Virus record (IMG/VR): IMGVR_UViG_3300022822_000008
DNA length: 64,000 nucleotides
Reading direction: 5' to 3' (one strand)
From: a virus
Taxonomy: Duplodnaviria > Heunggongvirae > Uroviricota > Caudoviricetes
Below the pieces are notes generated by a model. The model searched no databases and was not told where the DNA came from. It saw nothing but the letters and a program-made list of their open reading frames with translations. Made by a program: the position numbers and the translations under genes. Of the stretch, positions 2,696 through 61,129 are shown in pieces; within the stretch, counting starts at the first letter, position 1, and every line of letters starts with the position of its first letter.

Positions 2696-2725
2696 ATTAT
2701 ATCAAACTTGGTACCAAATGTCAAT
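2696..2725 (-). promoter_or_regulatory. Sigma70-type early promoter (-35 ATTGAC, -10 TTGATATAAT)
   Basis: Minus-strand TTGATATAAT with 17-bp spacing to the -35 box. Confidence 0.5.
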
Positions 2726-2732
2726 AGTTATT

Positions 2733-2960
2733 TTATCTAAATTTTTGTTTATTACCAATTTTAGCTAAACCCCAAGCTAAAGATAAACAAACGATTACAA
2801 TTGCGATTGTAATCCAAAATGGAGAAAGTACCCACAACCAAGACCACGCAATAAACCCAGTCAGTTTCAATACAATGAAGACAATCGTCAATAGACCTAA
2901 GAAGCCAATACCACCATCGTTATTGTTGTTATTCACATTATTTCTGTTACTCATTTTCAT
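2733..2960 (-). CDS. Small membrane protein; paralog of 3572..3820
   Basis: Track ORF 2733..3080 trimmed to the internal start MKMSNRNN, preceded by GAGAGG, because the upstream part overlaps a tRNA; shares LTIVFIVLKL.G.I.WSW.WVLSP.W with 3572..3820. Confidence 0.5.
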   Translation of the reverse strand: MKMSNRNNVNNNNNDGGIGFLGLLTIVFIVLKLTGFIAWSWLWVLSPFWITIAIVIVCLSLAWGLAKIGNKQKFR

Positions 2961-2981
2961 TCCTCTCTCATTATTAAAAAT

Positions 2982-3056
2982 TGGCTGGGATATCAAGGTA
3001 CGATCCTGAAATGACGGATTTAAAGTCCGTAGTGTTGCCAATTGCACCATATCCCA
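2982..3056 (-). tRNA. tRNA-Gln paralog with anticodon TTA (reads UAA); candidate ochre suppressor; non-canonical T-loop ATCGTAC; CCA encoded
   Basis: Acceptor TGGGATA/TATCCCA is identical to the 5' acceptor of tRNA-Gln(TTG) at 3838..3912, and the discriminator G is shared; perfect anticodon stem ACGGA/TCCGT with loop CTTTAAA; D-stem 3 bp; T-stem TCAGG/CTTGA. Confidence 0.6.
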
Positions 3057-3069
3057 TTTATTAATAAGT

Positions 3070-3172
3070 GATGTTGCCATGGAATCGAACCACGAGGCTG
3101 CCGTCGCATTTAGCTCTTCCAGAACACGCAGGAATCGAACCTACTTGCCTATCCTTATACAACATCATAATT
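3070..3172 (-). other. Degenerate tRNA-like region: two T-arm/acceptor-like modules without a foldable D-arm and anticodon arm (tRNA remnants)
   Basis: Two motifs (CATGG-AATCGAA-CCACG at 3078-3094; GCAGG-AATCGAA-CCTAC at 3128-3144) each with an adjacent acceptor-like 7-mer; no 5-bp stem with 7-nt loop found between them. Confidence 0.3.
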
Positions 3173-3250
3173 TGGTGGGTAGTCACAGAATCGAACTGTG
3201 TTCTCAGGATCTTCAATCCCGCGCTGAATTACCAAACTAGCTCACTACCC
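3173..3250 (-). tRNA. tRNA-Phe (anticodon GAA), CCA encoded
   Basis: Acceptor GGGTAGT/ACTACCC perfect; T-arm CACAG-TTCGATT-CTGTG; anticodon loop TTGAAGA. Confidence 0.7.
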
Positions 3251-3260
3251 TTTATAACTT

Positions 3261-3336
3261 TGGTGGCCCACCCTGGGATCGAACCAGAAACCTTTCGATT
3301 ATGAGTCGAGTGCTCTACCAGTTGAGCTAACGGGCC
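3261..3336 (-). tRNA. tRNA-Met or Ile2 (anticodon CAT), CCA encoded
   Basis: Acceptor GGCCCGT/GTGGGCC; D-arm GCTC-AACTGGTA-GAGC; anticodon loop CTCATAA; the body is nearly identical to the tRNA at 7629..7704 but the acceptor stem differs. Confidence 0.75.
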
Positions 3337-3341
3337 GTATT

Positions 3342-3415
3342 TGGTACTAGGTGGAAGAATTGAACTTCCGTCTGACCATTATCAGTGGTCCGTTCTACCA
3401 TTGAACTAACCCAGT
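3342..3415 (-). tRNA. tRNA-Ile (anticodon GAT), CCA encoded
   Basis: Perfect T-stem GGAAG/CTTCC; perfect anticodon stem GACCA/TGGTC with loop CTGATAA; perfect D-stem GTTC/GAAC. Confidence 0.8.
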
Positions 3416-3435
3416 ATATTTAAAATAGTTAAAGG

Positions 3436-3508
3436 GGTGAACGACGGGGCTCGAACCCGCACAATCTCGAATCACAATCGAGGACATTACCAATTCTGCC
3501 ACGTCCAC
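3436..3508 (-). tRNA. tRNA-His (anticodon GTG), no CCA
   Basis: Perfect anticodon stem CTCGA/TCGAG with loop TTGTGAT; T-arm GCGGG-TTCGAGC-CCCGT; acceptor GTGGACG/CGTTCAC. Confidence 0.7.
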
Positions 3509-3571
3509 GCCTTTAACTACTTTTCAATTATATAACCATCCTTGGTCATGTTTTTAGTACATAGTATCAAA

Positions 3572-3820
3572 CTATGATTGTTTTGTTAACTTATATTTAA
3601 TTTTTTTGAAGCCTTCGATACCAAGTATCGCCACGAAAAAGATTAAATAACCAATAGCTCCGCAAGAAATGACAACAGTGATAGGTAACCATAAAGGCGA
3701 AAGTACCCACCACCAAGACCACGTAATTGTACCGACCAACTTTAAAACAATAAAGACAATAGTCAATACTCCCATTGTACCTATACCATCTGAACTTACT
3801 TCTTTTTTCCTTGAACTCAT
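3572..3820 (-). CDS. Small membrane protein; paralog of 2733..2960
   Basis: RBS GAGGAAG upstream of the ATG; two transmembrane segments; conserved motif shared with the paralog. Confidence 0.5.
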   Translation of the reverse strand: MSSRKKEVSSDGIGTMGVLTIVFIVLKLVGTITWSWWWVLSPLWLPITVVISCGAIGYLIFFVAILGIEGFKKIKYKLTKQS

Positions 3821-3837
3821 TTTACTTCCTCATCATA

Positions 3838-3912
3838 TTAATAATCTTGGCAGGGACAGAAGGATTCGAACCTTCGATACCGGATTCAAAGTCCAGCGCC
3901 TTAACCGCTTGG
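3838..3912 (-). tRNA. tRNA-Gln (anticodon TTG), CCA encoded
   Basis: Acceptor TGGGATA/TGTCCCT; perfect T-arm GAAGG-TTCGAAT-CCTTC; anticodon loop CTTTGAA. Confidence 0.75.
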
Positions 3913-3930
3913 CCATATCCCAATTGTAAT

Positions 3931-4005
3931 TTTATTAATTTGGTGCAAGGTGATGATAACGATCCATCCTCTAGGGATTTTCAATACCTTACTAATACAT
4001 CTCAG
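3931..4005 (-). tRNA. tRNA-Phe-like (anticodon GAA), second copy with non-canonical T-loop ATCGTTA; CCA encoded
   Basis: Acceptor GCAAGTT/ACCTTGC (6 of 7 pairs); D-stem ACTG/TAGT; anticodon stem AGGTA/TCCCT (4 of 5) with loop TTGAAAA. Confidence 0.5.
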
Positions 4006-4022
4006 TTAAACTTGCAAATATT

Positions 4023-4099
4023 TGGTATCAAGAACTGGAATCGAACCAGTATCAATTATTCGTATCTCTCGAAATGCTCTACCATTGAGCTATCCTGAT
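4023..4099 (-). tRNA. tRNA of undetermined specificity (anticodon loop AGAGATA lacks U33); CCA encoded
   Basis: Perfect T-arm ACTGG-TTCGATT-CCAGT; D-arm GCTC-AATGGTA-GAGC; acceptor ATCAGGA/TCTTGAT; the anticodon arm is non-canonical. Confidence 0.5.
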
Positions 4100-4216
4100 G
4101 TTTGAGATCGTACACGGCTCTCGACCGCAGACTAGATGAACTATTGAAGTGCATGAATCAACAAAGACGTCTCTATGTTGCTTTCTCAACTCAATCTAGT
4201 TATACGAAATAAGGTT

Positions 4217-4266
4217 ATCACAACTTGACATTTCCGCTCTAATTGCTTGATGTGAGAGGTTGTGAT
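4217..4266. other. Long imperfect hairpin (ATCACAAC...GTTGTGAT) immediately 3' of tRNA-Asp; possible processing site or small stable RNA
   Basis: 8-bp terminal inverted repeat with a partly self-complementary interior. Confidence 0.25.
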
Positions 4267-4271
4267 ATATT

Positions 4272-4347
4272 TGGCGGTGTGTGCGGGATTTGAACCCGCG
4301 ACCTCTTGCGTGACAGGCAAGCATTCTTACCCCTGAACTAACACCCC
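4272..4347 (-). tRNA. tRNA-Asp (anticodon GTC), CCA encoded
   Basis: Perfect T-arm GCGGG-TTCAAAT-CCCGC; perfect anticodon stem CTTGC/GCAAG with loop CTGTCAC. Confidence 0.8.
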
Positions 4348-4354
4348 AAAAATT

Positions 4355-4573
4355 TTAACTACACTTAATTCTGTTACCTATATAATCTCTAAAGATTTTA
4401 GGTTTTGTTTTTTGATCTGATTCAATATGAACCACATAAAAATGTTTTACATTATCAATACAAACGTATTTTACATTATGCGTTGGGTTTAGAATTGCAT
4501 ATATGCAAAGACATATAACCGTAATAACAGCTCCAATAATTCGTTTATATTTCATATTGTTTTCTTTTTTCAA
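4355..4573 (-). CDS. Small membrane or secreted protein
   Basis: 72 aa with a hydrophobic segment; promoter-like element at 4575-4604. Confidence 0.4.
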   Translation of the reverse strand: MKKENNMKYKRIIGAVITVICLCIYAILNPTHNVKYVCIDNVKHFYVVHIESDQKTKPKIFRDYIGNRIKCS

Positions 4574-4574
4574 T

Positions 4575-4604
4575 TCAGTGTGTACATTGTATCAAATATC
4601 TTGC
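4575..4604 (-). promoter_or_regulatory. Sigma70-type promoter (-35 GTTGAC, -10 TTGATACAAT)
   Basis: Consensus boxes upstream of ORF 4355..4573. Confidence 0.45.
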
Positions 4605-4627
4605 CAATGTCAACAACTAATATAATT

Positions 4628-4695
4628 TGGTGCGTCACAAGGGAGTCGAACCCTCAATGATTGGGTTTAGAATCCTACATTAACCATTATGACGC
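4628..4695 (-). other. Truncated tRNA-like element: acceptor plus T-arm and CCA, no anticodon arm
   Basis: T-arm GAGGG-TTCGACT-CCCTT and acceptor GCGTCAT/GTGACGC pair well, but only ~40 nt remain and no 5-bp stem with 7-nt loop exists; the 5' part overlaps the 3' end of ORF 4680..4949. Confidence 0.3.
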
Positions 4696-4949
4696 AATGT
4701 AACTCCAATACTTAAAACCCATCTGGAGCCTTTTTCAATCTTTTTAACTTTGTGGAAGTTAGCATCTGCTCTAAATAGACAGAATCGCCACCAACGAAAT
4801 ACAACGTTGCTACAAACAAATTCACCACCCTTATCAGCTTTTTTCAATGTAATATTAAACCGATAATGACGACCATATTTACCAGGATCTTTATGTTTTG
4901 GTATAAAGGAGCCTGTTTTATAATGGAATATATAAATGTCTGTCTTCAA
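4680..4949 (-). CDS. Hypothetical protein
   Basis: 89-aa ORF. Confidence 0.4.
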   Translation of the reverse strand: MKTDIYIFHYKTGSFIPKHKDPGKYGRHYRFNITLKKADKGGEFVCSNVVFRWWRFCLFRADANFHKVKKIEKGSRWVLSIGVTLRHNG

Positions 4950-5494
4950 ACGTTTGCTATAGAATAAAGTAAATATTCGATACCCCGAATTAAATTTATC
5001 ATTACCCCAACGGAATAATCTTAAACTTGGCGTTTGCGTTTTCTTCTACATTTTAGCACCTTCTTGTTTATCGAAAAATTCATCAAAACTGCAATGACCC
5101 ACATGAGCAGCAATTTTGTTTAGTTCTACTATCATGATATCTAAATAAGACATCACTTTGTTAAAATCTTCATTACTCATTTTACATTTCCTTATTAATA
5201 TCAATCAAAGAGCGAGTAGCAAGTGAAGCAATAAACAGTATTCGCTTGCCCCGAAGGATACAATACGAACAAAACAAATCACAAAAAACAAATCACACTT
5301 GTCGTTACATTAGTTCAGTTAGCAATGGACAAGTCTTAAGACACCCAATATAGACTGTAGCAGTAACAAATTGACCGTAAAGGTCTCCATTAATGTTCTG
5401 AAATTAATCAGAGGTACTTGTTCTCTTTTCTCTTGATTGATAGTCATCTGTATAGGTCCCCCTAGGGTAGACTGTTTCCGATGACGCGAACTCT

Positions 5495-6067
5495 TTAAAT
5501 TAGATTTGATTTTGAAAGTGATGCCTCTACACTAGGTGAAAGATCAATTTCTGTTTTTATATTCAACTCTAACAATTTATCTTTTAAATTTTGTCTAGTT
5601 CTTTTGTACGTAGCAATCTCTTTTTCCGCGTTACTTAAATACGACTTACTAAGTACTGAAGTTGAAAAATTGCTCGACATTCTATCGTAAGATGAACTGG
5701 ATTCATTGCTTTTAATTTTCCAAATTTTACCTGCGATCAATTCAGCACTCATTTGCTCACCAGCCGTAATTGCATCTTTGGCGTCTTTCAAATGCGCTTC
5801 AATTAAAGCGATTTCGGTAAGCAAGTCACTGACGCCTGCTTTATGATTACTCCTTGATACATCTTTGCGTATTCTGTACAAAATATTAGTCAGATCAGAT
5901 TTTAAAACTTCTGCATCTTTGAAATTACTTCTTGCTGTGTCAATTTGCACATTGGCATCTTCATGCTCATTCAATCGAACTACTGCAAGAGAAGAAAGAT
6001 TAATGTTTTTAATTACACTTTGTATTTCTTGTTGTAAGGCATTTGCCTTTCTTAAACTAATTTTCAT
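5495..6067 (-). CDS. Hypothetical coiled-coil protein
   Basis: 190-aa ORF in the tRNA region. Confidence 0.5.
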   Translation of the reverse strand: MKISLRKANALQQEIQSVIKNINLSSLAVVRLNEHEDANVQIDTARSNFKDAEVLKSDLTNILYRIRKDVSRSNHKAGVSDLLTEIALIEAHLKDAKDAITAGEQMSAELIAGKIWKIKSNESSSSYDRMSSNFSTSVLSKSYLSNAEKEIATYKRTRQNLKDKLLELNIKTEIDLSPSVEASLSKSNLI

Positions 6068-6092
6068 TTTACATCCTCATTATAAATTATAT

Positions 6093-6170
6093 TGGTGTTC
6101 ACGGTTGGAGTCGAACCAACGACCTCAGGATTAGAAATCCCGTGTTCTTTCCAGCTGAACTACGCGAACG
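6093..6170 (-). tRNA. tRNA-Arg (anticodon TCT), CCA encoded
   Basis: Perfect T-arm GTTGG-TTCGACT-CCAAC; anticodon loop TTTCTAA; perfect D-stem GTTC/GAAC. Confidence 0.7.
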
Positions 6171-6178
6171 TTATTAGG

Positions 6179-6254
6179 CATCCCCACGTGGATTTGAACC
6201 ACGGTTTCTGCTCCGAACAGAGCATTGTCCTAGGCCTGACTAGACGATAGGGAT
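6179..6254 (-). tRNA. tRNA of uncertain specificity (possibly Asn GTT); anticodon loop is 6 or 8 nt, not 7
   Basis: Perfect T-arm CGTGG-TTCAAAT-CCACG; acceptor ATCCCTA/TGGGGAT; D-stem GTCT/GGAC; anticodon region TGCTC-TGTTCG-GAGCA does not give a 7-nt loop. Confidence 0.5.
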
Positions 6255-6263
6255 ATTAAAATG

Positions 6264-6333
6264 AGCAGGTAAAGGGAATCGAACCCTTTCTACACAGCTT
6301 GGAAGGCTGGCGGATAACCTTTATCTTACCTGC
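6264..6333 (-). tRNA. tRNA-Gly (anticodon TCC), no CCA
   Basis: Perfect acceptor GCAGGTA/TACCTGC; perfect T-arm AAGGG-TTCGATT-CCCTT; anticodon loop CTTCCAA. Confidence 0.65.
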
Positions 6334-6523
6334 ATTAAACTACTTAAAACGCTGGTTCATCCTTCTTGCGAAGATGTTGAACTATATTGGTATTACACTT
6401 AATTATATTATCTGCATTCGCGCCTATGTGTGCAGTACGTAATGATTCACATAGATTCTCTAATTCAACTAAAAACTCATAATGATCTTCTTTGTAATCA
6501 AACATAATAATTCCCAAATAATT

Positions 6524-6598
6524 TGGTACACCTAGAGAGAATCGAACTCTCATTGTCAGGTTGAAAACCTGGTGTCCTGACCGTTAGACGATAGGTGT
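6524..6598 (-). tRNA. tRNA-Glu (anticodon TTC), CCA encoded
   Basis: Perfect acceptor ACACCTA/TAGGTGT; perfect T-arm GAGAG-TTCGATT-CTCTC; anticodon loop TTTTCAA. Confidence 0.8.
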
Positions 6599-6604
6599 AA
6601 AAAT

Positions 6605-6682
6605 TGGTAGCGAGTAATGGAATCGAACCATTCTCTGTTCGGCTTATGAGACCGATGAGTTCTACCAGAACTCTAACTCGCG
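6605..6682 (-). tRNA. tRNA-Met/Ile2 (anticodon CAT), CCA encoded; body differs from the other CAT tRNAs
   Basis: T-arm AATGG-TTCGATT-CCATT; anticodon stem TCGGT/GCCGA with loop CTCATAA; D-stem GAGT/ACTC; C1-U72 mismatch. Confidence 0.7.
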
Positions 6683-6807
6683 TTTGTCATTTATTGGAAC
6701 GGTTATCACTGAACGATCCGCAATCAGTAGCTTTATCCGTTATAGTATTTTTCAACTAAACATATAAGGCAGGTATTTATTTCTTCGTGTTTCGATTCAA
6801 TATAAAC

Positions 6808-6837
6808 ATTATATCAAAAAACTAAAGCAAAGTCAAC
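6808..6837 (-). promoter_or_regulatory. Early promoter cassette with conserved leader, positioned to drive the tRNA sub-cluster 6682..6093
   Basis: GTTGAC-17-TTGATATAAT followed by TGTTTATATTGAATCGAAACACGAAGAA; no ORF follows, only tRNA genes. Confidence 0.6.
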
Positions 6838-7187
6838 CTTTATTTTCAATTATTCTGATATTATTCTTAATATTTTCCGGCAAATTTAAATGTGCAATTT
6901 TTTTGATAAAGTTATTTCGTGCATTTTCTTCATTCTTCGCCTTTAAAGTCAACCTTACAAATTCACCTTCTTGTATCCCATATTCACCAGTTACAATAAA
7001 AGTTTTCATTCAACCTCTTTAGGAAATAATGCCGCGACTGCAGTGAAAAGGTTAAGTTCTCTCAATGACAGTTTTGTAATTTCATCAACTGCCGCATCAG
7101 GATCTTCTTTAAACATTTCTCGCATTTCCCTAACATATTGCGCGCTTATTTCCGGGTGTAACATATCGTACTCCATAATAAAAAAAT

Positions 7188-7260
7188 TGGCACCAGAGTT
7201 AGGAATTGAACCCAACAGACGAGGGGTTGGAATCCTGTCGATACCCTGTATCTCTCTGGC
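7188..7260 (-). tRNA. Compact tRNA, anticodon ambiguous (CCA/Trp or TCC/Gly)
   Basis: Acceptor GCCAGAG/CTCTGGT; T-arm TTGGG-TTCAATT-CCTAA; the anticodon region GGTTGGAAT gives two alternative weak stems. Confidence 0.45.
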
Positions 7261-7270
7261 ATTGTAAATG

Positions 7271-7336
7271 TATTCACTCTAGGGATCGAACCTCGGCGTT
7301 CGTAGCACCGCGCTCTTCCATCTGAGCTAAGCAAAT
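7271..7336 (-). pseudogene. tRNA-Arg(ACG)-like remnant: D-arm, anticodon arm and T-loop present; variable loop and T-stem collapsed; acceptor does not pair
   Basis: D-arm GCTC-AGATGGAA-GAGC; anticodon stem CGGTG/CGCCG with loop CTACGAA; GGTTCGATCC T-loop lies directly against the anticodon stem (~6 nt missing). Confidence 0.35.
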
Positions 7337-7341
7337 ATCAG

Positions 7342-7433
7342 TGGCGGATAGACTAGGATTCGAACCTAGGGATCCCTGTAACAGGACCGACGAGTTAGCA
7401 ACCCGTTGCCTTAAGCCACTCAGCCATCTATCC
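7342..7433 (-). tRNA. tRNA-Ser (anticodon GCT), type II, CCA encoded
   Basis: Perfect acceptor GGATAGA/TCTATCC; perfect T-arm CTAGG-TTCGAAT-CCTAG; anticodon stem ACGGG/CTCGT with loop TTGCTAA; 20-nt variable arm. Confidence 0.75.
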
Positions 7434-7440
7434 AAATAAA

Positions 7441-7518
7441 TGGTGTGAACGGTGGGAGTCGAACCCACAAGCATCTGTTTCTAAAACAGATAGGTAAACC
7501 AATTCCCGTCACATTCAC
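7441..7518 (-). tRNA. tRNA with anticodon TAG (Leu-type anticodon) but a short type I variable loop
   Basis: Perfect T-arm GTGGG-TTCGACT-CCCAC; perfect anticodon stem TCTGT/ACAGA with loop TTTAGAA; acceptor GTGAATG/CGTTCAC. Confidence 0.55.
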
Positions 7519-7533
7519 AATAAAAGCATAATG

Positions 7534-7608
7534 TCAGAAAGGAAAGATTCGAACTTTCGACCCCACGGATCCAAACCGTGTACTCTGACCAGACTGAGCT
7601 ACTCTCTG
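7534..7608 (-). tRNA. tRNA-Pro (anticodon TGG), no CCA
   Basis: Perfect T-arm GAAAG-TTCGAAT-CTTTC; perfect anticodon stem CACGG/CCGTG with loop TTTGGAT. Confidence 0.8.
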
Positions 7609-7628
7609 ACATTATGCTCTTTAAATTT

Positions 7629-7704
7629 TGGTGCACCGCCCTGGATTCGAACCAGAAACCTTTCGATTATGAGTCGAGTGCTCTACCAGTTGAGCTAGCA
7701 GTGC
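7629..7704 (-). tRNA. tRNA-Met/Ile2 (anticodon CAT), CCA encoded; near-duplicate body of 3261..3336
   Basis: The internal ~60 nt are identical to the tRNA at 3261..3336 apart from a T-loop base; acceptor GCACTGC/GCGGTGC. Confidence 0.75.
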
Positions 7705-7727
7705 GTAATTTTAACTTTAAACAAATT

Positions 7728-7798
7728 TGGTGGAGAACCAGAGAATCGAACTCTGTTCTAGTCGGTGCAAGCGACCATCTGCATCCATGACGTTCCCC
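7728..7798 (-). tRNA. tRNA-Ala (anticodon TGC) with the G3:U70 identity pair, CCA encoded
   Basis: Acceptor GGGGAAC/GTTCTCC gives G3-U70; perfect T-arm CAGAG-TTCGATT-CTCTG; anticodon loop CTTGCAC. Confidence 0.8.
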
Positions 7799-7804
7799 AA
7801 TTTT

Positions 7805-8197
7805 TTACACCTTTAACTTATCATCTCTAGTAAGGTAGTTTTTCTTTCGCATAGTTGTTTTTGCTATAACATCTAATTCATCATTTCGTTTATCGTACTT
7901 AACCATAAAAGGTATGTTGATGTTTGAGTTAATGTCGAATAAAACTGCTTCGACACCTGGATTCATACCTCCGATTTTAGGTCCATGTTTTGCAAATACC
8001 TTCTTGAACATACTCATTAGCTCAACTATTGTAATTGCATTACCGTTTCTAGCATCGTTGACTCTTTCTCTAAAATGAGTACCAGATAAATCTATATCTA
8101 CACCAACAGCAGCGAATAACTTATCAGCAAATTTCTCTACTATACCAATATCTGTTCTTGAAAGTTCTTCTGAGAACATTTCTTTAAATCTTTTCAT
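7805..8197 (-). CDS. Hypothetical protein
   Basis: 130-aa ORF. Confidence 0.5.
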   Translation of the reverse strand: MKRFKEMFSEELSRTDIGIVEKFADKLFAAVGVDIDLSGTHFRERVNDARNGNAITIVELMSMFKKVFAKHGPKIGGMNPGVEAVLFDINSNINIPFMVKYDKRNDELDVIAKTTMRKKNYLTRDDKLKV

Positions 8198-8385
8198 TGT
8201 GACTACCTTATTATTTTTATCTATTTATCTATTTATGTACAAGGTTATCAACTAAATAATTATATGTCCAGTATCCTCACCTAAAAGAGGAATGCATCGG
8301 CCGTTTGCATCGCTAATCTTGACCCTATGCGTCCGAGGATTGGCATTTAGGAACGATCAATTTTGCATACTGGCATATAATTATT

Positions 8386-8461
8386 TGGTAGTGTGAAATG
8401 GATTTGAACCATTATCTAATCCCTTATGAGGAGATTTCTTTACCAATTAAGATACCACACT
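8386..8461 (-). tRNA. tRNA with anticodon CAT (fourth CAT tRNA), CCA encoded
   Basis: Perfect T-arm AATGG-TTCAAAT-CCATT; anticodon stem ATCTC/GGGAT with loop CTCATAA; acceptor AGTGTGG/TCACACT. Confidence 0.7.
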
Positions 8462-8472
8462 ATTAAAAAATT

Positions 8473-8548
8473 TGGTACTCGATGATGGGATCGAACCATC
8501 AACATCTGCCATGTAAAGGCAGTGCTCTGCCTATTGAGCTAATCGAGT
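8473..8548 (-). tRNA. tRNA-Val (anticodon TAC), CCA encoded
   Basis: Perfect acceptor ACTCGAT/ATCGAGT; perfect T-arm GATGG-TTCGATC-CCATC; perfect anticodon stem with loop TTTACAT. Confidence 0.8.
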
Positions 8549-8610
8549 TTTGGTGCCGAAACCCGGAACTGACCCGAGAACTAATGGTTACAAATCACTT
8601 GTTTTTCCAG

Positions 8611-9252
8611 TTAAACTATTTCGGCTATTTCGTTAATTGATTGCCAACTAAGTTGGCTCTTATTTAAAATTATTATTCTAACGCCATTCTGTTCTTCTAC
8701 TAGTTTTATCTTTTCACAATCTTTGAACCCAAGGCTTGGGTTGATGTTGTTAATTAGAAAGTCGTTTTTAGGGTCTAAATATAAATCATAGTCTATTAAA
8801 TATATGTCTGGTGTATAGGTTCTTGCTTTGCCTTTTGGGTCAATATAATTGAACCTCGAGCAAGTATCCCATTTAATGTCATTTTCATCTAAGCTCTTTG
8901 CAACTTCTAATTCGTAACTACTACCTAAAGTTTTACCTTTATATTTTATCCATCTAGACTGAGTTACGCCACCAAGGCCACGTTTTTTCGCGGCTATTGA
9001 TAATTTATTCCTAGCTTCTTGAGACCAATTACGATTTCTATTACGTTCGCTAATCTTATTTCTCGCGTCATCACTTAAAATATAAGGTATACCAGTTTCC
9101 GAAGATTTGATCCATTGATTGCTATTCTTCCTCTTATCATAATCAATTTTAGGGTCTGCAATTCTATCTGGATTTTCTGCGCATCTTGGTTGATGTGCGC
9201 TCAATACCCTTTTCTTTTCTATTTCTTTGTTACAATATTTGCAATTAAACAT
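8611..9252 (-). CDS. Putative free-standing homing endonuclease (N-terminal CxxC zinc finger, NUMOD3-like repeats, C-terminal nuclease-like domain)
   Basis: CKYCNKEI...HQPRC; repeated KIS/KLS.RNRNRNWSQEARNKLS motifs; located directly beside the tRNA cluster. Confidence 0.45.
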   Translation of the reverse strand: MFNCKYCNKEIEKKRVLSAHQPRCAENPDRIADPKIDYDKRKNSNQWIKSSETGIPYILSDDARNKISERNRNRNWSQEARNKLSIAAKKRGLGGVTQSRWIKYKGKTLGSSYELEVAKSLDENDIKWDTCSRFNYIDPKGKARTYTPDIYLIDYDLYLDPKNDFLINNINPSLGFKDCEKIKLVEEQNGVRIIILNKSQLSWQSINEIAEIV

Positions 9253-9424
9253 TAATGTTCTCTAATAATTTTAATATATTTATATTTATATAATTTAATT
9301 ATTCAAAACCAGTGCATCACCATCAATGCTTAATCGGCAGTTTGTTTATCTTCCCTTAGAGCCGTTAACGATAAACTTTGGCACGGTTATCAATTTTTCA
9401 ATTGTTCATCAATTCAGAACGTGT

Positions 9425-9454
9425 ATTATATCAAACTAATTTCTATTTGTCAAC
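9425..9454 (-). promoter_or_regulatory. Sigma70-type early promoter
   Basis: GTTGAC-17-TTGATATAAT upstream of the homing-endonuclease-like ORF. Confidence 0.55.
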
Positions 9455-9910: not shown

Positions 9911-10433
9911 AATTATTCTCTTAATGTTTTATTCAATACAACTATTGTATCAAGTTTAATAATTTTGTCAATGACTAATTTGCCCAATCTATACTAAAAA
10001 AGGTTAACAAATAAATGTTAACCTTTAGTTTAATTTTTTAAATTAATACTTACGTTAACATCGGTAGATCCACTCATCATTATTTTTATGTGACGGCATC
10101 CCTACAGGACTAATTATAAAATACGCGCTCACAATAGACTGTCGCGTCGAGGCGAGTCTTAAGTTTGCTTGTATTAGTTGAATTATAGAATTCATTTTAA
10201 TCCTTTGTTTAATTATTAATTTTATTTATAACACTTTGCATCTTTCGTGAAAAACTTTTTACCTGATATTCGTCAGTTTATTTAACATTGTAAACAAACG
10301 TATACACTCCATTTCTTCCGGCTCGACACTAGGATTTGATTGAATTTCTTTTGCCGTTGGAGCTTTGTCGTATTGACCATAGACACCTGATGTTTTACTT
10401 TTATACATGTACTTCGTCATAATCACTTTCCTG

Positions 10434-11384: not shown

Positions 11385-11921
11385 TTATAATTCACAATCG
11401 ACGAAGTAAGTGTTAAAAGCATAGTCGATCAACTCATTAACATTATCCATATTTTCAACTCTATGGTGTCCACCTTCGTGACATTTTAAATAAGACACAT
11501 CTTTCAACATCTTAATTGTTTTCGAGACTTCAATAATTTCGTCGCTTGTTTCGATGTAAACGTATTTCGGGACTCTATTTTTTAACTCATTTTCACTAAT
11601 ATTTGGATATGCCAAATGTGGCAAGCTTTTTTCTGGGAAAATTGCGGGGTTGATAATCACTGCAGGTATTTCATATTTCGCAGACATTTTCAATGCCCAA
11701 TAAGCACCCAAACTATGACCAACAAGCATTTCAGGTTTCGACGATTCTATTTGTTCAGAATAAAGTGCGTTAATCTCTGCATAGCTCAAGAAATCATAGT
11801 TTACGGTTTGACATTTTTTGTCATACCTTTTGATTTGAGTGAATTTATTTGTTTGACTACTTGATTGATAGCCATGGTAAAACATAATCATTTTGTAAAA
11901 CTCCGTAAATCGAAACAACAT
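11385..11921 (-). CDS. Alpha/beta-hydrolase fold esterase (GHSLGA nucleophile elbow)
   Basis: GxSxG motif MLVGHSLGAYWA; size and layout of YqiA-like esterases. Confidence 0.55.
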   Translation of the reverse strand: MLFRFTEFYKMIMFYHGYQSSSQTNKFTQIKRYDKKCQTVNYDFLSYAEINALYSEQIESSKPEMLVGHSLGAYWALKMSAKYEIPAVIINPAIFPEKSLPHLAYPNISENELKNRVPKYVYIETSDEIIEVSKTIKMLKDVSYLKCHEGGHHRVENMDNVNELIDYAFNTYFVDCEL

Positions 11922-11973
11922 TAATTCGATGTGTTAATTGTATCAAGCGCTGCAGAGACTGTCAACCTTTATT

Positions 11974-13237: not shown

Positions 13238-13268
13238 GTTTCTCTTTGTTGTTTCGATTCAATACAAA

Positions 13269-13299
13269 TATTATATCAAAATATGACGTCCGTGTCAAT
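13269..13299 (-). promoter_or_regulatory. Early promoter cassette with conserved leader (ATTGAATCGAAACA)
   Basis: -35 ATTGAC, -10 TTGATATAAT, then TATTTGTATTGAATCGAAACAACAAAGAG. Confidence 0.6.
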
Positions 13300-18049: not shown

Positions 18050-18232
18050 TGTTTTAACAACTCTTTAAATTGGTTGTAAGTGCGAATGCTGCGAACTTCA
18101 CCTTTATCTACACGATCAACAAAGTTTTGCATGGCTTTTTCAAGGTCGATAATTCTTAGATTGAGAATTTGCGTCTCTGTTAGTTCAACATATGGCATTT
18201 GTTTATACTCTTTGTTATTAAAACGATATGTA

Positions 18233-44156: not shown

Positions 44157-44185
44157 ATTATATCAAAACTCACCTTCAAGTCAAC
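44157..44185 (-). promoter_or_regulatory. Early promoter cassette
   Basis: GTTGAC-17-TTGATATAATAGTTGTATTGAATTAAACAACAAACGG. Confidence 0.55.
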
Positions 44186-47205: not shown

Positions 47206-47277
47206 AATATAATTCCAGTTTATTTAAGTTTATAGGTGTATTATACGTAAAATTTGTTTTACTGTCAACATTTATTT

Positions 47278-55177: not shown

Positions 55178-55395
55178 AATAGTTCCTTTACAGCGCTGAT
55201 TTGATTGCAGAGTCAGGCGTGTCGCCGTTCATAAAATAATCGTACCATTCGATAAGTGATATTTCCGATATTCTCTCAAAAGAAGCACGTTGTGAAATGG
55301 CCAACATAAATTCTTCAAATTTTGATTTTTCGTTTTCGCAAAGGTCGTCATAAAAATCGTTCATAAAATGTAATTCCTTATTAATTCAATACAAC

Positions 55396-55424
55396 TATTA
55401 TATCAAAGTCTCAAGCAGAGTCAA
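55396..55424 (-). promoter_or_regulatory. Early promoter cassette
   Basis: GTTGAC..TTGATATAATAGTTGTATTGAATTAATAAG. Confidence 0.55.
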
Positions 55425-56554: not shown

Positions 56555-57076
56555 AATTGATTCTTCTTCTTTACGACTGCAATGATATGTTCCATTAAAT
56601 GAATATTATTGAAATCATCACCTTCTAAGAATTTGATAATATTCTCAAGTGTTACATAACCATCAATATCTCCTGATAGCTTATTTCTAAATTCATCGCG
56701 TAAATACGACACATCAGAAGCGATTGATTCAATTTGGTGTATTGTTAAACTCATTTTGCGTAGCTCTCATATTTTGATTTAGTGATATAAAGAGAGTCAG
56801 CAATTATTATTGCCAACACATTAAGAGGTGTATCAGAAATGGCATCAAGAGGTGTATCAGAAACGACATCAAATTCATCTTCAATATCAGTTTCTAATCT
56901 TTCTGCAAAGGCTTCTATCGCCTCCTCAGAATAAGCGTCGATTAATATCAACACTTCGGCATAACTGTTAAGAATGATTTGTATGTTTTTTTTGAGTTCT
57001 TCGGTTGAAGACATAATATATTTCCTTTAATTCAATACAAGCACAATAACAAGTTATTGTGCTGCTGTCAACCATT

Positions 57077-58234
57077 TTACTCGTCAGATAAGATATCACA
57101 AATTTCGTCTGCAAGAGCAGAGAAGAAACCATAATCATTTTTTGGATTGCATCTTGTTGTTTCAGCTGCTGTACCTAATCTAATACCGCTTGTTTGAACG
57201 AATGACCTCGGATCATTAGGAACACTATTTTTGTTTACCGTTATATGTCTTAATTCTAAAAGATCAGCTGCTTCTCTACCGCTATATTTTGAATTACTTA
57301 AATCAAGCAATATGATATGACATTCAGTACCTCCAGTCAGAACTTTAAATCCTCTTTCAATAAAAATATTGGCCATGGTTTGAGCATTAGAAATAACTCT
57401 TTTTGCGTAGCTTATAAATTCTGGTGTATCTGCTTCAATAAAACACTGAGCCTTCGCTGCAATAATATGCATCAATGGACCGCCTTGAGTACCTGGGAAT
57501 ATAGCGCTGTTGATTCGTTTGGATAAGCATTCAGAATTCCATAAAATAAATCCACCACGCGGGCCGCGTAAAGTTTTGTGTGTTGTAGAAGTTACTACAT
57601 CAGCATAGGGTACGGGTGAAGGATAAGCTTTTGCAGCAATTAAACCAGAGTAGTGTGACATATCAGCAACTAAAAAAGCGCCTATTTCGTCTGCAATTTC
57701 TCTGAAGATATGCCATTCGATTATACCTGAATATGCACTAGCACCAGCAACAATAACTTTAGGTTTAAATGTTAACGCTTTGTTTCTAACGTCTTGCATA
57801 TCGATATAGCCATCTTCATCAACTCCATAGGAATAAGAGTCGTAAGTTTTACCTGATATATTTACAACACTGCCATGCGAAAGATGACCGCCTGCAGATA
57901 ATGACATTCCTAACAAAACATCACCAGGTTCAAGAAGTGCTTGATAAACAGCTGTGTTTGCATTCGCGCCAGAATGGGGTTGGACATTTGCAAATCTTGC
58001 ACCATATAACTTACAAACAGAATCAATTGCTAATTGCTCAATTTCGTCCATATGATCGCAGCCATTATAATAACGCCTGCCTGGATATCCTTCAGCATAT
58101 TTGTTAGTAAAGACAGAACCGCACAAATCCATAACTTCTTGACTAGCGAAATTTTCACTAGCAATTAGCTCGATTGTTCTATCTTGTCTTTTCGTTTCTT
58201 TATATAATATTTTTGCTATGCTGTTATCTATCAT
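57077..58234 (-). CDS. glyA: Serine hydroxymethyltransferase
   Basis: SHMT motifs LIASENFAS, YSGLIAA and the PLP-lysine loop TSTTHKTLRGPRGG. Confidence 0.9.
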   Translation of the reverse strand: MIDNSIAKILYKETKRQDRTIELIASENFASQEVMDLCGSVFTNKYAEGYPGRRYYNGCDHMDEIEQLAIDSVCKLYGARFANVQPHSGANANTAVYQALLEPGDVLLGMSLSAGGHLSHGSVVNISGKTYDSYSYGVDEDGYIDMQDVRNKALTFKPKVIVAGASAYSGIIEWHIFREIADEIGAFLVADMSHYSGLIAAKAYPSPVPYADVVTSTTHKTLRGPRGGFILWNSECLSKRINSAIFPGTQGGPLMHIIAAKAQCFIEADTPEFISYAKRVISNAQTMANIFIERGFKVLTGGTECHIILLDLSNSKYSGREAADLLELRHITVNKNSVPNDPRSFVQTSGIRLGTAAETTRCNPKNDYGFFSALADEICDILSDE

Positions 58235-58681
58235 TTATAACCCCATTGTCTTTAGTATATCGTCGTATTCCATTTGACGTCTTTTATCATCTGATAGAAT
58301 TGCCTGTGCTCGTTTTTCCAGTTGCGCCAATGCAGTTTCTTTTTGTTTTAGCTCTATCATGGACATTCTTTTCTTGATGTCAGTAGTCCAATCTTTAACG
58401 TAAAAGCTTTTAAACAATATAGGTTTTGCTATCTGATTCAACGTTGCATCTGCACGACCTCTAAATTCTTCCCACATTAAAAGTTGAGTCAATGATTCAA
58501 CTAACACAGGCGCCGATGCTGTGGCGATATTAATAGAATCAGAATTTCCGAACTTCAAGGAACAATTGGTAACCCAACAACTCTGAAGCTCTGATTTAAC
58601 TTTTGCAATTTCTGTTCTGTCGCTTTCTATTTTTTGGATGATTGCTTCGATCTTATCGTCGATGCCGTAATCTTTACTCAT
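58235..58681 (-). CDS. Hypothetical protein
   Basis: 148-aa ORF, start/stop-adjacent to glyA. Confidence 0.45.
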   Translation of the reverse strand: MSKDYGIDDKIEAIIQKIESDRTEIAKVKSELQSCWVTNCSLKFGNSDSINIATASAPVLVESLTQLLMWEEFRGRADATLNQIAKPILFKSFYVKDWTTDIKKRMSMIELKQKETALAQLEKRAQAILSDDKRRQMEYDDILKTMGL

Positions 58682-58693
58682 TTTTATTTCTCC

Positions 58694-59908
58694 TTAGTAT
58701 CTACGTACAGGGGTAGATGTGCCGTTTGAACAAACCAGAGTAGCCACTTTAAACCCAGTTACTTCTAGCTGTTGTAATAATCTTTCTCTTGTTGTTTCTG
58801 TTTTATTTTCAAAAATAATACTTTCATAGCGCGCCAAAATTTCTCTGGAAGCGGAATCTGGATCGTAATCTTTTATCATTTGACCGTCGATAAATTCTAC
58901 AATTGCAAATAAGTTTCTATTTCTTCCGTTTCCGTAACCGTTATGAAAATGTCTTCTATCATATCTACTTACTAAATTTGATTGGTGATAATAACTTATA
59001 GTGCCATCGAATGTAACGAATTTACCCTTCGTCTCAATCTCTTTAAAAAAAGATACATTACCGGAATAATTGTTTGCAAGTAAATAAGCATCACTTTCTT
59101 TCTTTGTTACATCAGTCAACTTATAACCTGTAATGGGCTGACTTAGTCGCGATTTTTCAAATTCAATTACACGATCTGCATAGTCATCCACACATTCGTC
59201 AAGGATACATTCAGCAAGTTGGGAAGTAGACGGTACAATAAATGTCCTTCTTTCAAAACTGTATTCACAGCAATCTGTGTATTGAAAGATGTGTTTGTTA
59301 CCCTTCAATAACATTCTTCGGCTCATTGCGTTTGAATTGAGTGTGCCGTGAGATTCCTCTTGATACCACGGACGAAATCCGATATAAATCAGTTTGTTTT
59401 CGTTACTTTTCATACTGTAGGTATGACCTTTAACAAAGTCTTTAGTGGATAAGTTTTTGGACTGTTTCTTGGTGTGAATTACGGATTCTCTGTACTGTTC
59501 GGAGTTTGTAGGTAACAACACTAAGTCTTTGCCGCACCAAGCATAAACGCATTCTTCAACAATATCGCGCTTGGATACGTCTGAGTGCATGAGAATACCG
59601 ATTAGATTATCTACTGAAATTTCAAATTCGAAATCGCGCTCATCGTGTACTCTGACTACGCTTCGCCCAGAACCAAAATGTGATCCAGATCTTTCAATTC
59701 CCTTATTGAACATAAAGGAGGTTTGTGGTTTGTTTTCAAGTTCTAAAGTTCCGAGCTGATGATTTCTCCAACTGTCCCATGAGGGTTTCTTCCTGTGTAC
59801 GCCTTTATCATCAACATAGACAATGTAAGCAAGTTTACCAGTGAAGGTACCATAACGTTCTTGAAATCCTACCATAATGGTTTTTGGTATATACAATTTA
59901 CTATTCAT
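58694..59908 (-). CDS. Hypothetical protein (404 aa)
   Basis: Long ORF with no recognisable motif. Confidence 0.55.
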   Translation of the reverse strand: MNSKLYIPKTIMVGFQERYGTFTGKLAYIVYVDDKGVHRKKPSWDSWRNHQLGTLELENKPQTSFMFNKGIERSGSHFGSGRSVVRVHDERDFEFEISVDNLIGILMHSDVSKRDIVEECVYAWCGKDLVLLPTNSEQYRESVIHTKKQSKNLSTKDFVKGHTYSMKSNENKLIYIGFRPWYQEESHGTLNSNAMSRRMLLKGNKHIFQYTDCCEYSFERRTFIVPSTSQLAECILDECVDDYADRVIEFEKSRLSQPITGYKLTDVTKKESDAYLLANNYSGNVSFFKEIETKGKFVTFDGTISYYHQSNLVSRYDRRHFHNGYGNGRNRNLFAIVEFIDGQMIKDYDPDSASREILARYESIIFENKTETTRERLLQQLEVTGFKVATLVCSNGTSTPVRRY

Positions 59909-59915
59909 AATTTAG

Positions 59916-60176
59916 TTACTCTCTGCTCTTTGGCCTAACATCACTGCATGGGGTTTCCATATAATCATTTTTCATTTTGTTGATAATTTCTATACACTCA
60001 CGAATAGCACCATTATATGCCATCTCATATTCGTCATTTCCGAATAATTCTAGGCTCATAATTTCTTCGACTATGTCATAAGTCATTAGCGATATATTTA
60101 TATCAGATACAGATCTATTCTTCATCTTATTTCTTCCACAATTTTTTGGCGAGTTTAAGTGCGGATATAATAGCAT
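59916..60176 (-). CDS. Hypothetical protein
   Basis: 86-aa ORF. Confidence 0.35.
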   Translation of the reverse strand: MLLYPHLNSPKNCGRNKMKNRSVSDINISLMTYDIVEEIMSLELFGNDEYEMAYNGAIRECIEIINKMKNDYMETPCSDVRPKSRE

Positions 60177-60351
60177 CTACATCATCCATTTTTAAATGTC
60201 CAACTTTTTTGCCTTCCCAGGTAATTAAATCAATATTGCCGCCACAGTGCATACCTTTCATAGAAGCGATCATTTCAGTTCCACCACTACCTGTAGTAAA
60301 CTGTAATTCATTAACACTTTCCGAACCATTACCTATAAATATTTTAGTCAT
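60127..60351 (-). CDS. Hypothetical protein
   Basis: 74-aa ORF. Confidence 0.35.
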   Translation of the reverse strand: MTKIFIGNGSESVNELQFTTGSGGTEMIASMKGMHCGGNIDLITWEGKKVGHLKMDDVDAIISALKLAKKLWKK

Positions 60352-60353
60352 TT

Positions 60354-60632
60354 TTATTTCTTTCCCGTTAATGTTGCAAGTTTGTTAAAAGTGAATGGGA
60401 TACCTTTTGCAAAAGTAAGAGTTATGGTTACGCTTATTAACAATAATATTATTCCCAATAAAGATATCGGCCAGATTAAACATCCACAAAATAATGCAAT
60501 TGTCCATCTGTTGAAGAATTCTTTATTATCGTCTGTTATTTTTCTGAACCTGGCATGACAGAATGAAACTATGCAGCCCAAAAATACGCCGGAAATTAAC
60601 ATAGTCAAAACTGTATCGGGTTGAATTATCAT
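60354..60632 (-). CDS. Small membrane protein
   Basis: Two transmembrane helices. Confidence 0.4.
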   Translation of the reverse strand: MIIQPDTVLTMLISGVFLGCIVSFCHARFRKITDDNKEFFNRWTIALFCGCLIWPISLLGIILLLISVTITLTFAKGIPFTFNKLATLTGKK

Positions 60633-61066
60633 TATTCACATCTCTCTAAGATTTCATAAACATCAAAGAATAAATCACGAACAACGGTGTCTAGATGGTA
60701 AATTGAGGCGATCAATTCTTGGTCATCACGATCCGTTTTGTAAGCTTTGATGAATAAATCCATAGCGGCAAGATCATCTGCAATCATTTCTGCAATCGTT
60801 TCTTTTAATTCGACATCGCCGTCATACTCTTCTTGATCTTTATTATCACTTAAATACGCTGCGCGGATAGAATCTAGTTTGTCAATAACATTCCAAACTG
60901 TAACTTCTTCAGGTGCCGGTTCACATCCACGTTCTCTCATTATCTGGGCCTGTAAATCACTAACCTGAGTTTCCAAGTTGTGAATATAAGTAAACATGTT
61001 GGCAATATCTTCATCAGAAGTGCCATGTTCTAGGTGATGGGCAAGTACAACGTTTGGTTTAATCAT
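60632..61066 (-). CDS. Hypothetical protein
   Basis: 144 aa downstream of the promoter cassette at 61101-61129. Confidence 0.45.
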   Translation of the reverse strand: MIKPNVVLAHHLEHGTSDEDIANMFTYIHNLETQVSDLQAQIMRERGCEPAPEEVTVWNVIDKLDSIRAAYLSDNKDQEEYDGDVELKETIAEMIADDLAAMDLFIKAYKTDRDDQELIASIYHLDTVVRDLFFDVYEILERCE

Positions 61067-61100
61067 AATTATTCCGTTTGTTGTTTAATTCAATATAACT

Positions 61101-61129
61101 ATTATATCAAAGACTCAAGTAAAGTCAAC
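61101..61129 (-). promoter_or_regulatory. Early promoter cassette
   Basis: GTTGAC-17-TTGATATAATAGTTATATTGAATTAAACAACAAACGG. Confidence 0.55.

Follow-up and report, generated by a model that had tools for sequence, protein, structure and literature searches.

We analysed a stretch of 64,000 nucleotides (nt) from a virus of the Caudoviricetes (IMG/VR record IMGVR_UViG_3300022822_000008), called the window in what follows, in which all genes lie on the minus strand and in which near-identical copies of a promoter with its leader recur ahead of runs of genes. The window has a GC content of about 35% and carries 23-25 tRNA genes in one block at 611-8625; its gene content is of the early or auxiliary kind only, with no structural or replication core visible. 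To judge from their sequence, the repeated units, which we call cassettes, are almost certainly early-class promoters of the sigma-70 type with a conserved leader. Our analysis suggests that they are probably early promoters of the T5 type, that the initial transcribed sequence (ITS) would be part of the promoter, and that recombination between copies would both homogenise and reassort them. What we describe is a known T5-type early-promoter pattern in a new lineage and not a new kind of element.

Number and layout of the cassettes

The strict pattern GTTGAC-N15-19-TATAAT occurs 19 times, on the minus strand only, whereas shuffled sequences average 0.15 and never exceed 2, and TTGAC-N16-18-TATAAT occurs 22 times on the minus strand and never on the plus strand. 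In a scored scan (hexamers plus TG, cut-off at least 11 of 13) we find 28 strong sites, again on the gene strand only, 27 of which have the TG-extended -10 TGNTATAAT. Around seven weaker copies lie near 57071, 53933, 50064, 32473, 23553, 16558 and 14716, and an independent repeat search recovers the cassette as families D1-D5 with 7-18 copies each. Generic 9-of-12 promoter matches do not exceed shuffles (88 against 82.4 and 89 against 81.0), so that the promoter signal is restricted to the top class. The original prediction of at least 19 near-identical units on the gene strand is thus borne out, and every copy that it listed is a real one, 2696 and 61129 being the outer ends of real copies.

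Twenty-four of the 28 strong sites fall in called gene junctions; the other four, which the junction test does not place, are copies in the tRNA region by inspection. The cassettes are spaced about 2.3 kb apart and each heads a run of genes, rather than the single small open reading frame (ORF) or ORF pair that had been supposed.

Anatomy of the unit and its leader

An anchored column alignment of the copies shows conservation from about -46 to +20, in a whole unit of about 85-95 bp. The UP-like tract AAAATAAnGG, rich in A, spans about -46 to -37 and is followed by the -35 element TTGAC(A/T), a spacer of 16-17 nt and the extended -10 TGATATAAT (consensus tTTGATATAAT), and then by a class-specific discriminator A-N-T-T-N-T (consensus A-g-T-T-g-T) and the ITS, ATTGAAT(C/T)(G/A)AAACA(C/A). 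With standard geometry the predicted transcription start is the A of ATTGAAT. The combination TATAAT-NNTTNN-ATTGAA occurs 15 times on the minus strand and not on the plus strand, and a TATTGAA-type start is found in 19 promoters if the CATTGAA and TATTAAAT variants are included. A second promoter made of the TTGAAT of the start region and a downstream -10 was dropped by eye for its unsuitable spacing.

Two leader sub-types had been described at the outset and both are real, type A (ATTGAATCGAAACACGAAAA... or ATTGAATCGAAACAC...) and type B (ATTGAATTAAACAACAAACGGAA...); we add a third, type C (ATTGAATTGATAAAGGAATTA or ATTGAATTAATAAGGAATTA). The 5' untranslated region is 23-42 nt long (median 28) and 51% A, and leads into a Shine-Dalgarno (SD) sequence and (A)ATTATG. 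In 25 of the 28 copies an ORF starts 23-42 nt past the predicted +1, with homology extending to the ATG (a value of 9 nt listed for the copy at 11942 reflects a spurious ATG), and complete leaders through the ATG are common to unrelated genes, as at 22770 and 31493. Three copies, at 6813, 1148 and 9430, have no ORF within 110 nt. That at 6813 stands upstream of tRNA-Met and tRNA-Glu, as had been predicted for a copy at 6808-6837, and at 1148 an Rfam tRNA starts 8 nt past +1, so the start block is kept before tRNAs.

The leaders are less structured than random 45-mers from the same strand, with a mean minimum free energy of -1.4 against -4.6 kcal/mol (p = 1e-10). The short palindrome that had been noticed in the leader is trivial, with a predicted pairing of 3 bp at -0.5 kcal/mol, and an Rfam scan returned tRNAs only, the leader matching no known RNA family.

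Several comparisons below draw on metagenomic loci, numbered with an L. Two syntenic relatives, L058 and L060, were retrieved at 69% identity, and a pattern scan of metagenomes gave 19 loci. L072 (99.1%) and L081 (97.6-99.1%) are strain-level variants of the window phage from sister metagenome samples; L065, L066, L071 and L075-L077 are contigs of at least one co-occurring related phage, with about 65-77% nucleotide identity where alignable; and L076 and L018 are one phage. The individual copies are as follows.

61725-61786, minus strand: cassette, TTGACA-17-TGATACAAT, ITS ATTGAAATTAATAAAG, leader of 27 nt to the ATG
61067-61128, minus strand: cassette of type B, ATTGAATTAAACAACAAACGGAATAATT-ATG
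57015-57071, minus strand: weaker copy, TTGACA-17-TGTTATTGT, then GCTTGT-ATTGAATTAAAGGAAATATATT-ATG
55365-55424, minus strand: cassette of type C, ATTGAATTAATAAGGAATTA
47206-47268, minus strand: consensus promoter that lacks both TG and the ATTGAAT start (ATAAACTT)
45053-45114, minus strand: variant cassette of type A, ATTGAATCAAAACAC; strong upstream terminator hairpin at about 45134-45166, then TTTTTTAGTATAG
44121-44184, minus strand: cassette of type B, sharing an identical spacer with the type A copy at 18555
43855-43916, minus strand: cassette of type B, -35 TTGATT; leader 100% and spacer 33% identical to the copy at 61106
40887-40946, minus strand: consensus promoter with a T5-like start, ATAAATTAAT
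39088-39151, minus strand: cassette of type B, with a type A leader at the orthologous gene in L077
37721-37780, minus strand: promoter, TTGACA-17-TGATAGAAT, start ACTGAAAC; terminator at 37804-37825 directly upstream
36548-36622, minus strand: cassette of type A', ATTGAATCGAAACACAAACGACAAT..., leader of 41 nt
36137-36213, minus strand: cassette of type A', identical to its L058 ortholog over 32 nt (TGATATAATATTTATATTGAATCGAAACACAA), with -35, spacer and distal leader diverged
35472-35539, minus strand: consensus promoter with its own start ATCGCGTT, kept in the L066 ortholog (ATCGCTTT)
31447-31516, minus strand: cassette of type A, CATTGAATCGAAACACGAAAACAAAAGGTAATTATT-ATG, with an upstream T-run
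29076-29146, minus strand: consensus promoter, start TCAATAAA, kept in the L058 ortholog (TCAATTAA)
25884-25940, minus strand: variant cassette of type B, ATTGAAATAAACAACAAAGAGAAATGT-ATG
25741-25786, minus strand: leader-only copy without -35 and without a complete -10, the product of a 135-nt tandem duplication
24702-24764, minus strand: cassette of type A between two paralogous 63-amino-acid (63-aa) genes
22723-22792, minus strand: cassette of type A; the orthologous gene has type C in L066 and no cassette in L060
18505-18578, minus strand: cassette of type A
18199-18261, minus strand: consensus promoter, start ATCGTTTT
13238-13298, minus strand: variant cassette of type A, ATTGAATCGAAACAAC
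11891-11965, minus strand: promoter, TTGACA-17-TGATACAAT, start ATCGAATT; the low coordinate is approximate
9911-9971, minus strand: cassette, ATTGAATAAAACATT; upstream terminator at about 9996-10026, then TTTTTTAGTATAG
9399-9453, minus strand: consensus promoter, start TCTGAATT, no ORF within 110 nt
6782-6836, minus strand: cassette of type A, no downstream ribosome-binding site (RBS) or ORF, about 118 nt upstream of tRNA-Met (6605-6682) and tRNA-Glu
4556-4613, minus strand: promoter, TTGACA-16-TGATACAAT, start ACTGAATT
2665-2724, minus strand: cassette of type C, ATTGAATTGATAAAGGAATTAAATT-ATG
1117-1171, minus strand: cassette, start ATTAAATT; an Rfam tRNA (1047-1128) begins 8 nt past the predicted +1

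The duplication behind the leader-only copy (25646-25920, minus strand) runs from the -10 TAATG to about codon 30, with TTAATG joined to GTTG at the junction; its ends are 90-100% identical and its middle only about 45%. It yields a promoterless leader with RBS and ATGAGAGA, and a new 37-codon hydrophobic ORF that is partly an out-of-frame copy of the downstream gene.

Selection on the core and reassortment between copies

Eight cassettes of the window have positional orthologs in L058, L066, L075 or L077, where the flanked genes share 51-78% protein identity (genes where measured). Within these pairs the segment from -15 to -7 is 0.96 identical and the segment from +1 to +8 is 0.94 identical, with 0.71 for the discriminator, 0.59 for +9 to +16, 0.47 for the UP tract, 0.46 for +17 to +30 and 0.44 for the spacer. 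At the 193/200-aa gene (64% protein identity) the cassettes are identical over 32 nt, from TGATATAAT through +16, and diverged in the -35, the spacer and the distal leader. Starts of another kind are kept in orthologs as well, ATCGCGTT at the phosphoribosyltransferase gene and TCAATAAA at a 131-aa gene. Taken together, these identities and the retained alternative starts mean that +1 to +8 is constrained as strongly as the -10 and that the remaining leader is not; purifying selection acts on -15 to -7 and on +1 to +8 in the orthologous copies.

Inside the window, spacers or complete leaders are much more alike between paralogous cassettes than they are between orthologs. The leaders of the copies at 61106 and 43894 are identical over +8 to +25 and their spacers are 33% identical, and the copies at 44162 and 18555 have identical 12-nt spacers joined to a type B and a type A leader, respectively. 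More generally, spacer similarity and leader similarity are uncoupled (Mantel r = 0.13, p = 0.07). When 61 cassettes are sorted into six genome groups, 38 of them find their nearest-neighbour spacer within their own group, against 13.5 expected (p = 0.0005), and 22 their nearest-neighbour leader, against 13.6 expected (p = 0.02). The mosaic is seen also in a second phage (L076/L018), in which GTTGACTTTAAGGTCTAAGTT is joined to A and to C leaders. Leader type varies even at one and the same gene. At the 162/148-aa gene the window has a type A leader and L066 one of type C, while L060 lacks a cassette there; at the 86/105-aa gene a type B leader in the window corresponds to type A in L077.

The simplest reading of this mosaic, on the sequence comparisons, is recombination or gene conversion through the invariant core. 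We suggest that the copies would be alike for two causes, namely selection on the core and concerted evolution. Recombination between copies would pass through the invariant core of about 22-24 bp (TGATATAAT-NNTTNT-ATTGAAT), so that upstream halves (-35 and spacer) and downstream halves (leader and RBS) could reassort and genome-specific subfamilies could form. Any gene shuffling that resulted would be a by-product, with no demonstrated function.

Comparison with the early promoters of T5-like phages

How do these cassettes relate to promoters that are already known? A BLAST search with a 55-nt cassette sequence finds matches chiefly in the Demerecviridae, with a few in Vibrio and unclassified phages, and the pattern TTGATATAAT-NNTTNT-ATTGAAT has 48 matches in viral contigs, mostly in genomes of about 104-123 kb. 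Members of the Demerecviridae with the block are the Providencia phages PR1 and PSTCR5, Proteus phage PM135, Pectobacterium phage My1 and T5-likes of E. coli and Salmonella. The string TGATATAAT-ATTTAT-ATTGAATCGGAACAC of PR1 and PSTCR5 is identical at 15 of 16 positions to the type A start of the window, and PR1 (KY363465) carries TGATATAAT-ATTTAT-ATTGAATCGGAACACGG beside promoters of the T5 form, so that both forms occur in one phage. The annotated early promoters of T5 itself (NC_005859) read AAAAATT..TTGCTT..TGTATAAT-ATATTC-ATAAATTGA(T)GAGAGG, with the ATTGA element 3 nt further downstream. T5 promoters have been confirmed by primer extension, all known T5 early promoters have an ATATT discriminator, and the T5 protein gpT5.026 weakens contacts of RNA polymerase (RNAP) at -5/+2 (PMC7472727).

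The cassettes share with T5-like early promoters their many copies on one strand in an early region of small ORFs and tRNA genes, the A-rich upstream tract, the TG-extended TATAAT, a class-specific A/T-rich discriminator, a conserved start containing ATTGA, and an SD directly after it. Early promoters of T5-like phages are recognised by the host sigma-70 RNAP, and by analogy we predict likewise for the cassettes of the window; an early timing would follow from this host-type promoter together with the gene content (tRNAs, thyA, NAPRTase, RNA repair and small ORFs). The differences are a consensus -35 in the window (TTGACA or TTGACT) in place of the T5-type TTGCTT or TTGCCA, a start that in T5 proper is displaced by 3 nt (ATAAATTGA), and the reassortment of promoter halves that is visible in the window phage.

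Work on the T5 promoter N25 and others has indicated that the first 8-20 transcribed bases act as part of the promoter (PMC12464699, PMC5961368), and in the cassettes the first 8 are conserved as strongly as the -10. According to PMC5961368 the first 10 transcribed bases can shift promoter output by about three orders of magnitude, the ITS should count as part of the promoter, and T-rich starts and TG dinucleotides within the first 7 nt go with slower escape, most strongly at +5/+6. That literature is functional and covers few promoters, ATTGAAT not being among the sequences measured, whereas the evidence from the window is comparative only. We expect that the +1 to +8 block would work at the level of DNA and initiation, within the promoter, and not as a translation signal; it could act in start-site choice, in initial transcription and escape, or in modulation of the class by a phage factor as has been proposed for T5. 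The distal leader would then simply be an open site for ribosome loading.

Several points weigh against reading the cassettes as T5-type early promoters. That the cassettes are active promoters, where transcription starts and that it is early are deduced from sequence and from analogy with T5. Since T5 itself has a non-consensus -35 (TTGCTT) and a shifted ITS, the match of the window to T5 proper is to a variant form. When the window ORFs were searched with tblastn against positions 1-50 kb of T5, only two of them matched (thyA and a phosphoesterase), so that no shared regulator can be inferred. The ITS of the window has its TG at +3/+4, and thus we cannot claim that it is optimised for escape. 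The type A leader pattern (ATTGAATCGAAACA) has no match in 185,579 species genomes. And ATTATG as start context occurs in 48% of cassette genes as opposed to 15% of the others, so that homology continues through to the ATG and an RNA-level signal close to the AUG is conceivable.

A kinship of the window phage with T5 is not demonstrable. Its source contig has at least 210 kb, and the window has no DNA match to any phage record. An exact copy of the 671-aa protein of the window (29167-31182) occurs in JGI metagenome 3300022841 and also on a 210,608-bp contig, and the best homologues of this protein from isolates, at about 53%, belong to Klebsiella, Proteus and Escherichia phages of about 135-147 kb. 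Nucleotide searches of phage records with 24 kb (megablast) and 8 kb (blastn) gave nothing useful, and a search for related loci in viral contigs confirmed no relative. The giant enterobacterial phages CBB and GAP32 were considered and rejected as relatives, since they offer only a short DNA match in an RNA ligase, around which the annotated genes of CBB are unlike the gene set of the window. As a whole we think it likely that the source is an uncultured large lytic phage whose cassettes would be read by the primary-sigma RNAP of its host.

Alternative explanations

The original prediction took the cassettes for relatives of the promoter-early-stem-loop (PeSL) units of T4-like phages, and the question is then whether they are mobile in that sense, that is, whether the repeats serve as portable homology tracts through which recombination excises, inserts and swaps the flanked small genes, for example by way of mini-circles. 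We regard this as possible though doubtful. In a PeSL as described, a stem-loop directly precedes an A/T-rich tract, which is followed by a sigma-70-like promoter, an SD and a start codon, and the units lie in hyperplastic regions and near indels (PMC4122927). Like the units of PMC2839356 and PMC4122927, the cassettes are repeated near-consensus sigma-70 units with A/T-rich upstream sequence that end in SD and ATG, and they too lie near small variable ORFs and bear signs of recombination between copies. The layout from the A/T tract through the promoter to the SD and ATG is thus as expected, the cassettes stand among small ORFs that vary between relatives (38 variable segments against 23 conserved junctions), and both the reassortment of left and right halves and the variable leader types at the two orthologous genes given above would fit. 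In 3-5 copies there is, moreover, a terminator, then TTTTTTAGTATAG, then the promoter. The stem-loop is confined to these 3-5 of 28 copies: over the 75 nt upstream, the mean energy of the best hairpin is -7.45 kcal/mol, compared with -7.27 for background, with 38% at or below -8 in both, and terminator-like sites are at or below shuffle counts. Clear upstream terminators are found only at 45092, 37757 and 9949 (terminators at about 45134-45166, at 37804-37825 and at about 9996-10026, minus strand, each followed by TTTTTTAGTATAG and then by the cassette), with weaker T-runs at 44162 and 31493; apart from this three-terminator TTTTTTAGTATAG subfamily, no cassettes agree with the PeSL layout. The conserved element downstream of the -10 (discriminator and ITS) is an extra that the PeSL description in PMC4122927 does not list.

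At breakpoints the cassettes are not clearly enriched. When synteny with eight related loci was followed by reciprocal best hits, a cassette was present at the right boundary of 11 of 38 variable segments, at the left boundary of 5 of 38 and at 3 of 23 conserved junctions, with a baseline of 24 of 148 junctions; these counts are not independent, are underpowered and come from distant relatives (protein identity mostly 35-80%), and amount at most to a weak excess on the right side only. Both strain-level indels lie away from cassettes, one being an extra ORF of about 360 nt directly after thyA in L072 (5747-6110, against window 19939), the other a 78-nt deletion in L081 (window 36656-36733) between TTTCAA direct repeats in the 3' end of an 81-aa ORF. 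A 5.4-kb block present in the window, L058 and L060, with a 671-aa DUF8224 protein, a 131-aa gene and a paralog array, is missing from L066, where NT5C directly follows NAPRTase (L066 3821, against window 27148-32513), and it has no strong cassettes at its bounds, only a weak copy near its left edge. Orthologous cassettes also keep their position across 51-78% protein identity (where measured). Of the PeSL claim, therefore, the promoter, the SD and ATG, the setting of variable small ORFs and the recombination between copies stand, whereas the upstream stem-loop and a clear enrichment at breakpoints do not, and the window has no marker of a T4-type genome. The name PeSL-like is partly supported, as a functional analogy of layout and inter-copy recombination and not as family membership, and a role of the cassettes in gene shuffling is not demonstrated. 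The PeSL idea is tempered accordingly: repeated promoters do recombine, but in our data set genes are not visibly gained and lost mainly at them.

Could the conserved block instead be a binding site? A DNA operator, by which the block from -10 to about +16 would bind a phage repressor or an RNAP-associated factor that modulates the early class together, is in our view unlikely. Selection on +1 to +8 as strong as that on the -10 is what such a site would show, a protein bound there would occlude RNAP, and T5 offers a precedent in gpT5.026 and the class-specific discriminator (PMC7472727). However, protein-family scans with Pfam and PHROG of 135 window ORFs show no helix-turn-helix, repressor or sigma-like family among the best 25 families listed for each library (and more broadly no regulators, recombinases or transposases among them), though a regulator could be encoded outside the window; nor did the search of window ORFs against positions 1-50 kb of T5 bring up a gpT5.026 homologue. 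Dyad symmetry is lacking in the block, and the other starts (ATCGCGTT, TCAATAAA) conserve their own +1 to +8 equally well, which fits promoter-specific tuning better than one shared operator. The promoter and start pattern occurs singly, too, in unrelated bacterial metagenome-assembled genomes (MAGs), which weakly hints that the arrangement may suit bacterial RNAP in general, as an RNAP-intrinsic feature.

An RNA-level signal, in which the 5' end (AUUGAAUCGAAACAC) or the AAUUAUG context would be read by a RegA-like repressor, an RNase or the ribosome (as an S1 or standby enhancer), seems to us quite improbable. The A/C-rich, unstructured leaders favour ribosome loading, and the ATTATG bias and the whole leaders shared to the ATG by unrelated genes are in its favour as well. 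In T4, RegA operators are A/U-rich sequences around the start codon that are common to several early genes, and the cassette genes share with them an A/U-rich start-codon context in which AAUUAUG is common. Conservation in the window, however, peaks at the transcript 5' end and not at the RBS and AUG, +17 to +30 being the poorly conserved segment noted above; the start block is kept without a following ORF at 6813 and 1148; and there is neither a hairpin for a structure-specific binder nor an Rfam family. A RegA-like family, too, is absent among the families listed from the scans. The suggestion that the leader binds a translational repressor is not supported and seems improbable, given that the most constrained bases also precede tRNAs and that the leader is unstructured. 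To a miniature inverted-repeat transposable element (MITE), a non-autonomous element that would carry the promoter with it, we give almost no credence: there are indeed many dispersed copies of an 85-95 bp unit, but all 28 have one orientation, on the gene strand, with a fixed register to the next start codon, and copies are positionally orthologous in relatives. Terminal inverted repeats and a transposase had been named beforehand as the signs that would make it a MITE. No terminal inverted repeats are common to the copies (four of eight tested have none and those of the others are idiosyncratic), and no transposase or integrase is among the best 25 families listed per library for the 135 window ORFs, so that we reject the idea.

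It may also be asked whether the core has a life of its own. An invariant core of about 24-32 nt is common to unrelated lineages, the T5-like siphoviruses and the lineage of at least 210 kb to which the window belongs, and this core (TGATATAAT-NTTTNT-ATTGAATCGAAACAC) might be a dedicated portable element, either a transferable target of an early-class regulator or a linker for recombination across families; we consider this very doubtful. If the core were such an element, the reassortment of promoter halves within genomes would also operate between families, and if it were a linker, co-infecting phages of different families would exchange early-gene cassettes that are ready to be expressed. 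The preferred reading, that of T5-type early promoters, has consequences of a more practical kind. It provides a comparative definition of an early promoter class, with which transcription units of this phage and its relatives can be annotated. The finding that +1 to +8 is under selection equal to that on the -10, together with the presence of these bases in T5-likes, supports including the ITS in the definition of a promoter and nominates ATTGAAT as a candidate sequence.

Further observations

In the bacterial MAG contigs (L088 and L082-L099) there are single copies of TTGAC-N-TGNTATAAT-NNTTNT-ATTGAAT; five of the matches are orthologous Ruminococcus loci, and one lies in an A/T-rich island of a contig with 62% GC. 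Mimicry of a host promoter was considered and set aside, the type A pattern being unmatched and the looser pattern giving only scattered single MAG hits that are uninformative on the host.

The tRNA cluster includes a tRNA called by ARAGORN at 2982-3056 (minus strand; Rfam 47.5 bits) with the anticodon TTA, which would read the UAA stop and is possibly an ochre suppressor, and an odd ARAGORN call at 6177-6254 (minus strand) has a 2-base anticodon.

A set of RNA-repair genes at 39361-41933, 46186-47205 and 16546-17451 (all minus strand) comprises a T4 Rnl1-type RNA ligase, an Rnl2-like ligase with a PHA02142 OB domain and an RlaP nucleotidyltransferase, together with a polynucleotide kinase divided between two ORFs, one for the kinase (AAA_33) and one for the phosphatase (HAD_PNKP). 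Genes of auxiliary metabolism lie at 32513-35471, 57077-58234, 19940-20803 and 26672-27148 (all minus strand) and encode an NAPRTase/NadV-like protein and a phosphoribosyltransferase (ribose-phosphate pyrophosphokinase in PHROG), a thymidylate synthase, an NT5C 5'-nucleotidase and a full-length serine hydroxymethyltransferase (Pfam E = 1e-146). Among the window proteins, one gives a match to Pfam WYL_2 (PF10902, E = 1.9e-17), a domain type that we take to be associated with ligand-sensing regulators. Finally, tandem paralog arrays are found at 27148-28621, 18583-19208 and 24510-24963 (all minus strand), with three genes of about 160 aa (3-4 copies in relatives), a pair of about 104 aa and a 63-aa pair that flanks a cassette.

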